From the NCBI GenBank assembly GCA_951813575.1, contig OX638375.1:3498752-3562751 (forward strand): a DNA stretch of 64,000 nt, read 5' to 3'. Below, piece by piece: positions 11,363-17,443 of this stretch. Under the pieces are notes generated by a model. The model did not search any database. It was given only the letters and a program-made list of their open reading frames with translations, and was not told where the DNA came from. Each line of letters starts with the position of its first letter. Position 1 is the first letter of the stretch. Both the position numbers and the translations under genes were made by a program. This stretch comes from Candidatus Binatia bacterium (GTDB lineage Bacteria; Desulfobacterota; Binatia; UBA9968; JAJDTQ01).

Positions 11363-11447
11363 GCCTTTTGTGAACAGCCAGGTGTTCCTCCGGTGTCCCT
11401 ACTGAAAATCCCGGCTCTTCCTCCGCACCGGCTCGGTATCTAGCTTC
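11363..11447. repeat. Copy B of the 78-bp repeat, overlapping the authentic dnaE2 stop codon and 3' UTR
   Basis: See copy A at 9606-9690. Confidence 0.55.
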
Positions 11448-14400
11448 GGCTGCCATACCGACTCCACCACGAGGTGGACGACGTTGGACTCGTTTTGCAG
11501 GGGGCCGCTGACGCCCATGAACGAGAGGGTCTTGACGGCGATCCGGAACCTTTCATAGACGTCCTGCCACACAATGACGTTGACGAAGCCGGTTTCGTCT
11601 TCGAGGGTCATGAAGATGACGCCCTTGGCGGTCTTGGGGCGCTGGCGGCAGATGACGATGCCGGCGTAGTCCACGCGGCGGCCGTGGGGCATTCGCTGCA
11701 CGGCGGCGGCGTCGGGGAGGCCCTGGGCGGCGATCTGCGGACGCAGGTGGGCCAGCGGATGGCCCCGGGGGCTGTGATCGGCGGTGCGGTAGTCCCAGAC
11801 GATGGACTCGAGGTCGCTCAGGGGCTCGAACGGGACCGGCGCCGCGGGGGTTTCGAGGGACAGAGCGTCTCCCGCGGCCGCCTGGAGTCCCTGGACCTGC
11901 CAGAGGGCCTGGCGCCGCCGGGAGGTGCGCGGGGTGAACGCGCCGGCCTGGGCCAAGCGGTCGAGGATGCCCTGGCGCAGCCCGGTGCGGGAGGCGAGAT
12001 CGGCCAGGGAGCGGAAGGGGCCGGCGCGCCGGGCGCTCTCGATGCGTTGCCAGTCGGCTTCCCCGAGCCCCTTGACGTAGCGCAGGCCCATGCGCAGGGC
12101 ATGGATCGGCGGGGCGCCGGCCCGCCCGCCGGCTTGGCTGTGACCGCTGGCCCGGGCGTAACCACCGGAACGGATTCGCTCCCCATCCTGCCTCTCCAGG
12201 GTGCAGTCCCAGTCGCTGCGCCGGATGTCCACCGGCAGCACCCGGACCCCGTGCCGCTTGGCGTCGTCCACGATGGTGGCGGGCGCGTAGAAGCCCATGG
12301 GCTGGGCGTTGAGCAGCGCGCAGGCAAAGGCCGTGGGGTAGTGGCGCTTGAGCCAGGCCGAGGCGTAGGCGATGTGGGCGAAGCTGGCGGCGTGGCTTTC
12401 GGGAAAGCCGTAGTCGCCGAAGCCCCGGATCTGCTCGAACACCTGGGTGGCGAAGTCCTTGTCGATGCCCTTGGCCTCCATGCGCGAGATGAACCGGTCC
12501 CGGTGCCGCTCGATCCTTCCCGATCTCCTCCAGGCGGCCATGTCGCGCCGGAGCTGATCGGCCTCTCCGGGCGTGTAGTCCGCGGCCACCACGGCCAGCC
12601 GCATGACCTGTTCCTGGAACAACGGGACGCCGAGGGTCTTCTTGAGGATGGGCTCCAGGGAAGGGTGGGGGTAGGTGACCGTCTCCTCGCCGTTCCGGCG
12701 GCGCAGATAGGGATGCACCATGCCGCCCACGATGGGCCCCGGCCGGACGATGCTGACCTCGATGACCAGGTCGTAGTACTCCCGGGGCTTGAGCCGGGGC
12801 AGCATGGACATCTGCGCGCGGCTCTCGATCTGGAAGACCCCCACGGTATCGGCCTCGCGGATCATGGCGTAGGTTGCGGGATCGTCCCCGGGAATCGTGG
12901 CCATGGAAAAGCTCCGGCCCCAGTGTTTCCGCATGAGGCGGAAGGACCTGTCCACCACGGTCAGCATGCCGAGCCCCAGCAGGTCCACCTTGAAGAGCTT
13001 GAGGCTTTCCAGGTCCTCCTTGTCCCACTGGATCACCGTGCGGTCGCGCATGGCGCCGTTCTCGATGGGCACCAGGTCCCGCACCGGCTTGTGGCCCAGC
13101 AGGAAACCGCCTGGGTGGATGGACAGGTGGCGGGGGAAGTCCTGGATCTCCGCCGCCAGCCTCAGCAACTCCCCGTGCGCGCCCGGGTCGAGGCCGGCGC
13201 TCTGGAGCACTTGCGGGTCCGGGCGCTCGTATTGGCCCAGCAGCCGGGTGACGCGGTGGAGCGCGGTTTCCGTCAGCCCCAGGACCTTGCCCACGTCCCG
13301 GACCGCGGAACGCCCGCGGTAGCGGATGAAGTTGGCCACCATGGCCGCGTGGGTGCGGCCGTGCTTGCGGTAGAGGTACTGGATGACCTCCTCCCGGCGG
13401 TTGTGCTCGATGTCGAGATCGATGTCGGGCGGCTCGGCCCGCTCCCGTGAGATGAACCGCTCGAACAGCAGGTCCATGCGCACCGGGTCGATGGCGGTGA
13501 TGCCGAGGCAGTAGCACACCGCGGAATTGGCCGCGGAGCCGCGTCCCTGGCAGAGGATGCCGTTCTGCCGGCAGAACCGGACCAGGTCCCACATGGTGAG
13601 GAAGTAGCCTTCGTAGGCGAGCTCCCCGATGACCTCGAGCTCGCGCTCGAGCTGTGCCCGGATATCTTCGGGGACGATGCCGCCGTAACGCTCCCCGGCT
13701 CCCCGGAAGGTGAGCTCCCGGAGCCGCTCCCCCGAGGTCTTGCCGCCCGGCAGCTCCTCGGAGGGGTAGCGGTAGTGGATCTCGTCCAGGGAGAAACCGC
13801 AGCGGGCGGCCGCTTCCAGGGTGCGGGCGACCGAGTCCGGGTCGTCCCTGAAAAGCGCCGCAAACGCGGAAGGGGACTTGAGGTCGTGTTCCGCGTTGGG
13901 CTTGATCAGCCGCCCGGCGGCGGCGAGCGGAACCCCGTGGCGGATGCAGGTGAGGACGTCCTGGAGCCGGCGTCGGGAGGGGTCGTGATAGAGCACCTCG
14001 GCGGCGGCCGCCGTGGGGATGCCGTAGCGCCGCGCCCGCTCCCGCAGCCGGCGCTCCTGCGGAGCCTCTTCCGCCCGGCGGTGGCGGGTCACCAGCGCGT
14101 AGAGCCGGTCGCCGAAGGCATCCCGGAGGTCCCGGGCGACGAACGCCGGTTCCGGTTCCCGCACCAGCAGGCTCTCCTCTCCGCCCCACAGGGCCAGGAG
14201 CCCGCCGGCGTGGGCGCAGACCTCGCGCCATTCCACCACGCTCTGTCCCTTGGGCGAGCGGAGCCGGCCGGCGGAGATGAGCCGGCAGAGGTGGGCGTAG
14301 CCGGTGCCGTCGGCGGCGAGCAGCAGGATGGAGGAGCCGTCGGCGACGGTCATGCGGGCGCCGACGACCAGATGAAGGCCCAGCTCCCGGGCCTTCACGT

Positions 14401-14560
14401 GGGCGCGCACGATGCCGTAGACGCCGTCCCGGTCGGTGAGGCCAAGCGATCCGATTCCCAGCTCCGCCGCCCGCTCCAGCAGCTCCTCGGGATGGCTCGC
14501 CCCCTCCAGGAACGAGTAGTGGCTCTTGCAGTAAAGGGGCGCGTAGGACACGGGCGCCAT
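11399..14560 (-). CDS. dnaE2: Error-prone DNA polymerase DnaE2 (ImuC), alpha-subunit family
   Basis: PHP domain start ([17 protein letters not shown]), polymerase core ([32 protein letters not shown]) and an OB-fold C-terminus. The ATG at 14560 overlaps the imuB stop (ATGA). Confidence 0.9.
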
Positions 14561-16717: not shown

Positions 16718-16804
16718 GAAAGCTCTCCGTGTCCCGCAAAAGGCAAAGGATCGGGCGCCGGGAACACGCTGTCCCGGATGCCGCGCCCATGCGACCCTTC
16801 GGGT

Positions 16805-17419
16805 TTACCCTTCCAGATAGCGTCTCACCTCCACCACCTTGCCCAGGACGGTGCACTCATCGGCCCTGGGGACGATGGTTGCGAAAGCCGGGTTCTCCGG
16901 GTGCAGCTCGATCCGGCTCCGGCGCAGCCGGAGCCTCTTGATGGTGGCCTCGTCGCCCACCAGGGCCACGACGATGTCGCCCGAGGCGGCTTCCGCCTGC
17001 TGCCTCACCACGACGATGTCGCCCGGAAGGATACCCGCTCCGGTCATGCTTTCCCCCTGGACCCGGAGCCCGAACACTTCCTCCGAGCCCCGTGACTGGA
17101 CCGGGATGTAGCCTTCGCATTCCTCGATGGCCGCCCGCAGCCCGCCGGCCTGCACCCGCCCCAGCAGCGGCACGAACAGCGTCCCAGGCTCCCGGGGCAG
17201 GCGATAGCCTCTGGATTTGCCGTGCGCCTTGACCAGCCGCCCCTCGGCTACCAGGCGTTCCAGATGCTGGCGGGCCGTCTGCACCGCCCTGAACCGGAAC
17301 GCCTCCTGGACCTCCCGCACCGTGGGAGGAAGCTCCTCCAGGATCCGCCTGCGCACGAACCGGTAAACCTTGTCCCGGGTCTCCCCCGGTGGAGTGAAGG
17401 GTGTCATGAGGATGCGCAT
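16805..17419 (-). CDS. lexA: LexA repressor (S24 peptidase, autocleaving)
   Basis: N-terminal winged HTH, then the A-G cleavage site region and the S24 Ser/Lys motifs (GESMTGAGI..GD, IKRL). The start is either ATG 17419 (MRIL) or ATG 17407 (MTPF). Confidence 0.85.
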   Translation of the reverse strand: MRILMTPFTPPGETRDKVYRFVRRRILEELPPTVREVQEAFRFRAVQTARQHLERLVAEGRLVKAHGKSRGYRLPREPGTLFVPLLGRVQAGGLRAAIEECEGYIPVQSRGSEEVFGLRVQGESMTGAGILPGDIVVVRQQAEAASGDIVVALVGDEATIKRLRLRRSRIELHPENPAFATIVPRADECTVLGKVVEVRRYLEG

Positions 17420-17443
17420 ACCAGACTTTTGTCTGGTATGCAA
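17415..17443 (-). promoter_or_regulatory. Candidate lexA operon promoter with a perfect 22-bp palindrome in the spacer (putative LexA operator TACCAGAC-N4-GTCTGGTA)
   Basis: The minus strand reads TTGCAT-accagacaaaagtctgg-TATGCG-cat. The palindrome ATACCAGACAAAAGTCTGGTAT (17418-17439) lies between the -35-like and -10-like hexamers, immediately before the lexA start codon. Confidence 0.45.

Follow-up and report, generated by a model that had tools for sequence, protein, structure and literature searches.

A conserved palindrome ahead of a lexA-imuA-imuB-dnaE2 cassette is a predicted operator of the cassette's own LexA

Results

A mutagenesis cassette headed by lexA

Four co-oriented and tightly linked genes, lexA, imuA, imuB and dnaE2, lie in this order in the 64-kb stretch of Candidatus Binatia DNA analyzed here (the window), all on the minus strand and preceded by a perfect inverted repeat (Table 1). 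Colinearity with other Binatia starts at 17443-17456, and colinearity with relatives ends at 11398. Complete Binatia chromosomes that contain the cassette are OZ243916.1, OZ253480.1, OZ243984.1 and OZ219754.1. The locus was compared with a footprint set of 80 loci encoding LexA relatives of 45-99% identity from about 12 phyla, each reaching up to 6 kb to either side of lexA. In 70 of the 80 loci, imuA-imuB(-dnaE2) follows directly 3' of lexA. Together with the gene models, this shared order bears out the cassette identity given in a preliminary description of the DNA.

Table 1 Features of the cassette and its upstream region (window coordinates).
Feature	Position	Strand	Basis or remark
Predicted LexA operator	17416..17441	.	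Perfect inverted repeat GCATACCAGAC-AAAA-GTCTGGTATGC, 11+4+11; conserved in relatives
-35-like hexamer TTGCAT	17438..17443	-	Ends in the two bases with which the 22-bp palindrome begins
Extended -10-like element TGgTATGCG	17415..17423	-	TG 17423-17422; hexamer TATGCG 17420-17415; partly made by the operator right arm
lexA	16805..17407	-	200 aa; TIGR00498, PF01726 and PF00717
imuA-like gene	16070..16717	-	215 aa; weak ImuA and RecA-like matches; conserved position
imuB (Y-family polymerase homologue)	14560..16083	-	PF00817 at threshold; junction sequence; conserved position
dnaE2/imuC (error-prone polymerase III alpha homologue)	11399..14560	-	NF004225; junction sequence

The LexA protein scored 151.1 bits with TIGR00498 (cut-off 110.95), 31.9 bits with the winged helix-turn-helix model PF01726 (cut-off 23.7) and 100.3 bits with the S24 model PF00717 (cut-off 23.3). 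Its AF2 model places helices at residues 7-23, 30-37 and 42-54, and the best PDB matches of this model were the T. maritima and E. coli LexA proteins, 3k2z and 3jso (LexA-DNA complex). The A87-G88 cleavage site and residues S120 and K157, which align to A84-G85, S119 and K156 of E. coli LexA, are invariant in 27 relatives. DnaE2 reached 1346.7 bits with NF004225 (cut-off 939), the match beginning at residue 46 of the long open reading frame, and stayed below the cut-off of the replicative DnaE model NF004226 (652 versus 1002). For ImuB, the Pfam IMS model PF00817 gave 23.2 bits, exactly its cut-off; in the same profile search all DinB models fell far under their cut-offs and no ImuB-specific model matched. 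The gene is tentatively identified as imuB by its position, which is kept in 70 loci, and by the 28-88% identity of its product with the proteins encoded there. The putative ImuA, a RecA/SulA-like accessory protein in known cassettes, matched the ImuA model NF033429 (28.2 bits, cut-off 150) and the RecA model (20.4 bits, cut-off 27) weakly, and is 37-99% identical to the protein at the same position in 71 loci.

Stops and starts had been described as overlapping throughout, which applies to two of the three junctions. The imuB stop and the dnaE2 start (ATG 14560; the longest open reading frame would begin at 14686) share TGATG at 14562-14558, and with ATG 16083 as the imuB start, for which GTG 16092 is an alternative, imuA and imuB overlap by 14 nt. 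LexA and imuA, in contrast, are separated by 87 nt, with GGAGAG preceding the imuA ATG. A candidate hairpin in this spacer was dropped, as its fold was no better than those of shuffled sequences (z = 0.25).

The palindrome fills the spacer of a putative promoter

Read on the minus strand, the 22-bp palindrome ATACCAGACAAAAGTCTGGTAT occurs once, at 17418-17439, with the core CAGAC-AAAA-GTCTG. As stated previously, the 64-kb window holds no second copy: there were no further matches with up to 3 mismatches, and in a matrix scan the operator scored 25.8 bits against 4.6 bits for the next-best position. No other regulon members were seen in the window, a family-B polymerase-like gene at 39928-42147 being without a site. 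Counting perfect inverted repeats with arms of 11 nt gave three in the window, compared with 0.5 expected from first-order Markov resampling. Therefore, the palindrome by itself is not decisive, and the decisive evidence for an operator is comparative.

The hexamers TTGCAT and TATGCG flank and overlap the repeat, which fills the 17-nt spacer between them. They agree poorly with the sigma-70 consensus, at only 6 of 12 positions, and a promoter scan made no call for the pair. Among 70 aligned sites, the first position of the -35 hexamer is T in 87%, TTG or cTTGACA being common, and T-A-T of the -10 hexamer is kept in 84%, 76% and 79%, respectively. In nearly all loci, the operator fills the spacer between -35 and -10. 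The placement of the palindrome between the two hexamers, as proposed earlier, thus stands, whereas its abutment to a lexA ATG at 17419 is not conserved. That codon, which lies inside the palindrome, was rejected as the lexA start, as it is missing from the close relatives L002, L005 and L006. The conserved start is ATG 17407, located 10 nt past the 22-bp palindrome and 7 nt past the -10 hexamer, and most LexA homologues begin with MTPF or MSP. Since this ATG follows the -10 hexamer so closely and has no Shine-Dalgarno sequence before it, the lexA transcript is predicted to be leaderless, and probably is.

The palindrome is kept in about 12 phyla and its flanks are not

A scan of 902,801 positions (903 kb) with an operator matrix returned 72 sites scoring 12 bits or more, compared with two in a shuffled control. 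Of these sites, 69 lie directly upstream of lexA. The remaining three (L053:6615, L058:6869 and L068:6156) lie between lexA and imuA, ahead of imuA, at loci where the two genes are split, and no site of this strength was found elsewhere in the 64-kb window or in about 840 kb of the related loci. The matrix was seeded with the palindrome of the window itself, so that high scores at lexA promoters arise partly by construction; the independent part of this evidence is the three imuA sites and the lack of sites elsewhere. Only the palindrome and the hexamers of the promoter are conserved, the flanks being at background level even at 50-68% protein identity, and the family core reads CAkAC-AwwT-GTmTG. 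About 9 of 78 upstream regions were without a good match, and several of these carry related palindromes, e.g., CACAC-N4-GTGTG or ATAC-N4-GTAT. The operator-bearing LexA lineage was found in Binatia, Acidobacteriota, Latescibacterota, Hydrogenedentota, Planctomycetota, Myxococcota, Verrucomicrobiota, Spirochaetota and others. Footprinting in relatives, the test named in the preliminary description for an autoregulatory operator, thus supports the predicted function: the palindrome is kept upstream of orthologous cassettes in about 12 phyla and the surrounding sequence is not.

Recognition helix and operator vary together

Residue 41 of the window LexA aligns to S39 of E. coli LexA and caps the N-terminus of predicted helix 42-54. 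Co-variation with the operator was analyzed in 70 loci out of at least 584 genomic relatives, and the numbers are raw counts uncorrected for shared ancestry. Of 116 arms paired with Ala41, 100 have G at arm position 3, and of 24 paired with Ser or Thr at this residue, 23 have a base other than G. In terms of whole arms, Ala41 goes with CAGAC and Ser41 with CATAC, TP...Y helices go with AATAC arms, and AF...H helices with CTGAC arms. Both arms of a site tend to change together, as in CATAC/CATAC, AATAC/AATAC, CTGAC/CTGAC, CACAC/CACAC and CGTAC/CGTAC.

The cassette LexA and its nearest relatives

The window LexA shares 37% identity with Pseudomonas LexA2 and 36% with E. coli LexA, and is thus no nearer to the former; Pseudomonas LexA2 and E. 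coli LexA are 42% identical to each other. The Pseudomonas LexA2 sequences used in this comparison were obtained through a metagenome scan with the LexA2 box. In the LexA tree, which mixes phyla, Pseudomonas LexA2 falls outside the clade on a separate branch. Because it is only 37% identical to Pseudomonas LexA2, the window LexA is assigned by sequence comparison to a separate lineage that is not orthologous to it. The nearest LexA outside the clade in our data set is a Firmicutes-type protein (L080, 45% identity) with GAACAAATGTTC upstream. In a plasmid collection, the nearest annotated LexAs were of the Firmicutes and Actinobacteria types, none above 41% identity. The window LexA may be a paralogue dedicated to the cassette, as suggested in the preliminary description, beside a putative second, canonical lexA of the same genome. 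Indirect evidence agrees with this: neither the 64-kb window nor about 840 kb of related loci holds further sites, the LexA tree mixes phyla, and the operators are unlike the canonical motifs of the host phyla.

Alternative functions of the palindrome

The palindrome is probably the operator, i.e., the autoregulatory site, of the LexA encoded immediately downstream. This reading is based on the family models and the fold, the distribution of sites, their information content and position, the co-variation with the recognition helix and the precedent of P. putida. A repressor from the host, either its canonical LexA or another regulator, might occupy the site instead of the cassette LexA, given that the host LexA controls many imuA-imuB-dnaE2 cassettes that have no lexA gene themselves (PMC3323433) and that in Leptospira LexA1 binds the lexA2 promoter as well (PMC3789691). 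Yet the cassette carries one and the same motif in about 12 phyla, and these phyla have different canonical LexA motifs (motif diversity: PMC8565304). Moreover, no DNA-binding protein other than the cassette LexA is invariably linked to the motif, and operator variants follow variants of the LexA recognition helix, so that we consider control by a host factor improbable.

It is less probable still that only a promoter was inherited, i.e., a -35 and an extended -10 element with an incidental dyad to which no repressor binds. The outer TAT of the right arm does double as the -10 element and is better conserved than its mirror positions in the left arm, and TG-n-TAT constitutes an extended -10. 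However, the positions with the highest information content (C-A-k-A-C-A ... T-G-T-m-T-G, 1.1-2.0 bits each) are located in the spacer and are symmetric, and the two arms tend to change jointly. The spacer of sigma-70 promoters is without sequence constraint. The least likely reading, and a very remote one, takes the palindrome for a hairpin that terminates the upstream gene, or for a site at which a mobile cassette recombines or ends. It would fit the location of the operator 29 nt past the stop of a RES toxin gene, the start of Binatia colinearity 2-15 bp from the palindrome, and the fact that the cassette has clearly moved between phyla. A terminator was nevertheless rejected, as the scan called none and no T tract follows the palindrome, and the upstream genes vary among loci, a RES gene being present in 0 of 80 relatives. 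Against a boundary site, neither the other end of the cassette nor the rest of the window carries a matching repeat, and the second copies in relatives sit inside the cassette before imuA rather than at its ends.

Discussion

A proposed self-contained mutagenesis module

According to our working model of regulation by the cassette's own LexA, a LexA dimer would bind, via its winged helix-turn-helix domains, the two CAGAC half-sites, which are spaced 8 bp from center to center, a distance also found in the Gram-positive box GAAC-N4-GTTC. Since the promoter spacer, from the -35 to the extended -10 element, is filled entirely by the site, bound LexA would exclude RNA polymerase and keep the predicted, probably leaderless lexA-imuA-imuB-dnaE2 transcript low. 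Upon DNA damage, RecA filaments would stimulate self-cleavage of LexA at Ala87-Gly88 by the Ser120/Lys157 dyad, repression would be relieved and the mutagenic ImuA-ImuB-DnaE2 translesion machinery could be made. New repressor made alongside would then turn the operon off again. Repressor, operator and polymerase genes would travel as a single unit that has spread between phyla.

We further put forward, as a proposal whose chances we judge to be evenly balanced, that an undescribed LexA lineage, with the Gram-positive LexA and not Pseudomonas LexA2 as its nearest relative, has an operator class of its own, CAkAC-AwwT-GTmTG, and forms a self-contained mutagenesis module. This module would be independent of the SOS regulator of the host and need only host RecA, would have spread horizontally over at least 12 mostly uncultured phyla, and its recognition helix and operator would have co-diversified. 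If so, the co-diversified pairs would provide a natural series for the DNA-recognition code of LexA and testable predictions of which residue reads which base. A further LexA motif tied to a multi-phylum lineage would make it possible to predict SOS-type control of mutagenesis in many uncultured groups. It would also show that the design of a cassette plus its own repressor, as known in Pseudomonas, is a module that has been transferred widely and put together more than once, from different LexA lineages. The basic picture of SOS-controlled ImuABC mutagenesis would remain unchanged.

Relation to known LexA systems

LexA is unusual among regulators in that its binding motif has changed often. 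By 2021, 17 LexA binding motifs had been reported (PMC8565304). The operator had previously been called novel-looking, which holds for its sequence, as CAGAC-N4-GTCTG falls outside all classes then listed. Searches for this motif, its variants and explicit site sequences retrieved nothing relevant from the searchable literature, an earlier description being possible, and no paper on LexA in Binatia was found. The architecture, on the other hand, is known: the operator is not a wholly new class but a variant of NNAC-N4-GTNN, to which the GAAC-N4-GTTC box of Gram-positive bacteria and the GTAC-N4-GTRC box of Pseudomonas also conform. The latter, the box of the Pseudomonas cassette LexA2 and the most relevant known class, was omitted from the earlier list (PMC5544203). 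Pseudomonas provides known examples of such a system, but the present repressor lineage and its operator sequence appear to be undescribed.

Gram-positive LexA/DinR, of which the chromosome encodes one, acts as the SOS master regulator of tens of targets, whereas here sites were seen only at the cassette. Its box in Firmicutes and Actinobacteria, CGAAC-N4-GTTCG, resembles that of the window in its 5-nt arms, its 4-nt A/T spacer and the inner AC...GT, and differs at arm positions 2-3, which are GA in the Gram-positive box and AG or AT in the present clade. Other second LexAs, i.e., Deinococcus lexA-imuY-dnaE2, Leptospira interrogans LexA2 (TTGTA-N10-TACAA) and the dual LexAs of Geobacter and Xanthomonas (PMC8072749; PMC3789691; PMC9578287), are likewise the products of additional lexA genes, in many cases acquired laterally, and autoregulate via a motif unlike that of the main LexA of the host. 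Unlike the window type, they have other motifs and gene contents, and none has been reported to be common to a dozen phyla.

In the 2007 work of Abella et al., Pseudomonas LexA2 is said to govern essentially its own cassette operon only, a restriction that the preliminary description also proposed for the window LexA. The lexA2-imuA-imuB-dnaE2(imuC) cassette of P. putida and P. fluorescens, with the LexA2 box GTAC-N4-GTRC, goes back to Abella et al. 2004 and 2007, as cited in PMC3901139, PMC5261740 and PMC5544203. In P. putida, LexA2 represses its own operon at this box, which overlaps the -10 element right before the ATG (PMC3901139; PMC5544203). Gene order is identical to that of the window, with lexA first. 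Both boxes form an NNAC-N4-GTNN dyad with an A/T-rich center (AAAT in Pseudomonas) that overlaps the -10 element a few nucleotides before the ATG, and both lexA genes look leaderless, the ATG following 7 nt past the -10. The half-sites differ, being AGAC or ATAC in the present clade and GTAC or GCAC in Pseudomonas LexA2. Within the clade, GTAC-N4-GTAC is present only at L019, where CGTAC-ATTT-GTACG equals the Pseudomonas core; both lineages therefore overlap in operator space without orthology.

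Gene content and layout of the cassette

The predicted operator, the promoter hexamers and the four genes that make up the mutagenesis cassette (lexA-imuA-imuB-dnaE2) all lie on the minus strand of the window. Family models identified LexA (TIGR00498, 151 bits against a cut-off of 111) and DnaE2 (NF004225, 1347 bits against 939), whereas the Pfam IMS score of ImuB equals the threshold exactly and ImuA gave weak ImuA and RecA-like matches only. The gene order proposed in the preliminary description is present, with both LexA and DnaE2 above cut-off. Its overlapping stops and starts hold for imuA/imuB and imuB/dnaE2, but not for lexA and imuA. 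The stretch of about 84 nt between these two genes (window 16723-16806) was also found in the relatives L001, L003 and L005-L008; L002 and L004 have 4-7 nt in its place, and L013 and L009 showed no contiguous match across it. A G+C-rich hairpin considered in this spacer was discarded, as it folds no better than shuffled sequence does (z = 0.25).

Features of the cassette and of the stretches flanking it
Feature	Position	Strand	Remark
-35-like hexamer TTGCAT	17443-17438	minus	
Inverted repeat GCATACCAGAC-AAAA-GTCTGGTATGC	17441-17416	minus	22-bp version of the preliminary description, 17439-17418
-10-like hexamer TATGCG	17420-17415	minus	TGg before hexamer, extended -10
Spacer CATCCTC, -10 to lexA	17414-17408	minus	7 nt
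lexA	17407-16805	minus	200 aa
lexA-imuA gap	16804-16718	minus	87 nt
imuA	16717-16070	minus	
imuB	16083-14560	minus	ATG overlaps imuA end by 14 nt
dnaE2	14560-11399	minus	TGATG, A of ATG common to imuB stop
Xre-like antitoxin	18151-18567		in 17457-23733 stretch
RES-domain toxin	17471-18283		in 17457-23733 stretch
FGE-sulfatase/ankyrin/Sel1 protein	19826-21880		684 aa, in 17457-23733 stretch
BrnT-like toxin	9320-9607		variable region
BrnA/CopG antitoxin	9042-9323		variable region
Cupin protein	9939-10514		variable region
ORF without assignment	10915-11274		variable region

The palindrome is conserved upstream of lexA

As previously claimed, the palindrome is unique in the 64-kb window. Perfect inverted repeats with 11-nt arms are not vanishingly rare there (3 observed versus 0.5 expected), so the case for an operator rests on comparison with relatives. 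The two others are both G+C-rich: GCCGAACAGCG-GGG-CGCTGTTCGGC at 18247-18271, which lies in the gene for the Xre antitoxin, and at 27375-27398 CCTCGCCGCCC-GG-GGGCGGCGAGG.

A scan of a genome collection, using an alignment of LexA relatives as query, retrieved 80 loci (45-99% identity), the closest being L001, a Candidatus Binatia chromosome whose LexA is 99% identical. Judged by their record titles, the loci belong to Binatia, Hydrogenedentota, Desulfobacterales and Thermodesulfobacteriota, Acidobacteriota, Latescibacterota, Spirochaetota, Myxococcota, Verrucomicrobiota, Planctomycetota, Krumholzibacteriota, Cloacimonadota, Arenicellales (Gammaproteobacteria), Sericytochromatia and Xenobia. 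imuA and imuB directly follow lexA in 70 of the 80, and dnaE2 comes next in every case where the contig is long enough.

When a symmetric position matrix was refined on the 210 nt surrounding every lexA start, it settled at ATAmCAGAC-AwwT-GTCTGkTAT, with the core CAkACAwwTGTmTG. Its 18 central columns were scanned over all loci and the window (902,801 positions), yielding 72 sites of at least 12 bits versus 2 in shuffled sequence. Just upstream of lexA lie 69 of these; the remaining three (L053:6615, L058:6869, L068:6156) fall between lexA and imuA where the genes are separated, and are predicted second operators preceding imuA. No strong site was found elsewhere in the scanned positions. Since the matrix was seeded with the window palindrome, scores at lexA promoters cannot count as independent evidence, unlike the imuA sites and the empty background. 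Only the dyad, the -35 T and the -10 TAT show high information per position, and in the eleven Binatia sequences the dyad is kept while the flanks have already diverged. Phylogenetic footprinting, as the preliminary description had proposed, thus found the palindrome conserved before lexA with flanks at background. The palindrome is a real, well-conserved regulatory element.

The upstream regions of L038, L059, L074, L075 and L079 showed no recognisable operator of this CAkAC family; that of L075 (Planctomycetaceae) carries another dyad, TCCCATA-TATTT-TATGGGA. CACAC-N4-GTGTG precedes lexA in L044 and L064. Three Latescibacterota loci (L029, L032, L034) have a lexA of the clade with the operator ~80 nt upstream and lack imuA, imuB and dnaE2 in the 6 kb that follow. 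Their LexAs might act alone or serve as general SOS regulators through the same CAkAC-type motif.

Promoter geometry and the lexA start

At nearly all loci the dyad takes up precisely the 16-17-nt spacer between TTGnnn/TTGACA and a TAnnnT-like hexamer, for example TTGACA-17-TATACT in L022 and TTGACA-17-TTTACT in L064. The window hexamers are weak (6/12 consensus matches) and were not called by a promoter scan; the right operator arm provides TGnTAT, an extended -10. The lexA ATG follows 6-7 nt after the -10 without a Shine-Dalgarno sequence in Binatia and many other members (window 17405-17423; L001-L018, L035, L055 and L066-L073), and a leaderless lexA mRNA is therefore predicted. Other clade members have lexA leaders of 40-190 nt with GGAGG. 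The Pseudomonas lexA2 promoter (TACAAAT-GTGCTCC-ATG; metagenomic loci L081-L200) has an equally close ATG and likewise lacks a Shine-Dalgarno sequence. Judged from sequence, leaderless mRNA seems to be a recurrent trait of cassette-borne lexA genes. An alternative start at the in-frame ATG 17419 was rejected, as this ATG is missing from L002, L005 and L006. The palindrome thus lies just upstream of lexA, as had been described, and the ATG within it is not the start.

LexA as the probable binding protein

LexA is the only DNA-binding protein always found with the site. Its predicted structure (pLDDT 78.7) has the LexA wHTH fold, with helices at 7-23, 30-37 and 42-54; the structures it matches best are LexA from T. 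maritima and E. coli LexA in complex with DNA. Residues 41-47 align with E. coli LexA 39-45 (HMMER), which we take to be the start of recognition helix alpha-3 in the 2010 LexA-DNA structure. Recognition-helix residues vary together with the operator arms: RAVQ(T/S)AR accompanies CAGAC in most loci, RSVQ accompanies CATAC, (R/A)TPQTARYHL AATAC (L057, L063, L073), KAFQTAHEHL CTGAC (Verrucomicrobia L031, L039) and SSVASAR CACAC (L064). Of 116 arms paired with Ala41, 100 have G at arm position 3, and of 24 paired with Ser/Thr41, 23 have a non-G base there, counts that are uncorrected for shared ancestry and hence supportive rather than proof. Very probably, the palindrome is the autoregulatory operator of the cassette-borne LexA. 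Because the relatives all keep the A87-G88 cleavage site as well as the Ser120/Lys157 dyad, the window LexA would be expected to undergo RecA-stimulated self-cleavage.

Relation to known LexA systems

The canonical LexA motifs of Verrucomicrobia (TGTTC-N4-GAACA), Acidobacterium (GTTC-N7-GTTC) and Myxococcus differ from the present operator. Equally unlike it are CTGT-N8-ACAG of Gammaproteobacteria (PMC3323433) and TTTG-N5-CAAA of Leptospira (PMC3789691). A second, independent LexA is therefore likely in such hosts. No classical SOS gene, for which a missing site would be informative, occurs in the window; genes outside the finding are metabolic or transport genes, plus one family-B polymerase-like gene without a site. 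This ORF (39928-42147, 739 aa) matches in Pfam only the exonuclease domain of family-B DNA polymerases, and no operator-like site lies upstream of it.

In P. putida, a lexA-led imuA-imuB-dnaE2 operon is repressed by its own LexA2 (PMC3901139; PMC5261740), and this arrangement is listed in several Proteobacteria (PMC8072749). The LexA2 box, GTAC-N4-GTRC, overlaps the -10 and ends 3 nt from the ATG, the published promoter alignment being AAGAGTACAAATGTRCTCC-ATG (PMC5544203). We translated the gene behind this box from 120 metagenomic loci carrying it. Window LexA shares 37% identity with Pseudomonas LexA2, 36% with its E. coli counterpart and 45% with one from Firmicutes (L080); LexA2 and E. coli LexA share 42%. 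In a neighbour-joining tree the Firmicutes sequence is sister to the present clade and LexA2 branches outside. Thus, the window system would work like the Pseudomonas LexA2 cassette, yet stands outside the LexA2 lineage.

The operator differs from the Gram-positive box by two bases per half-site (C-GA-AC versus C-AG-AC or C-AT-AC) and from the LexA2 box by one to two bases. In L019 (5948-5971; LexA 63% identity) it reads CGTAC-ATTT-GTACG, the LexA2 box core, which, given the separate protein lineages, looks like convergence of operator sequence. The impression of a novel operator holds insofar as no published description of CAGAC-N4-GTCTG was found in the searchable literature, whose coverage is incomplete; the motif is nevertheless a variant of the Gram-positive and Pseudomonas boxes. 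The operator sequence and the distinct LexA lineage appear to be new, whereas the kind of system is already known.

Spread and chromosomal setting

The LexA tree has Acidobacteriota, Latescibacterota, Planctomycetota and Myxococcota each at several separate places, in keeping with a laterally transferred cassette. Within Binatia it occupies a conserved chromosomal position, colinearity being confined to the region from 17443-17456 (-35) through 11398, one base past the dnaE2 stop. Compared with six Binatia genomes (L002, L004, L005, L006, L007, L013), the window carries an insertion of 6.2 kb immediately upstream of the cassette (17457-23733), synteny returning at ~23733, and 1.7-2.3 kb extra downstream. 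Both extra stretches contain toxin-antitoxin pairs, which thus bracket the cassette, and have lower third-position GC (in 17457-23733, 0.69-0.80 versus 0.84-0.95 elsewhere). The upstream stretch, in which several ORFs have no family match, looks like an inserted island. Just downstream of dnaE2, the variable region spans 9035-11398, and relatives rejoin at 9034, 9392 or 9687.
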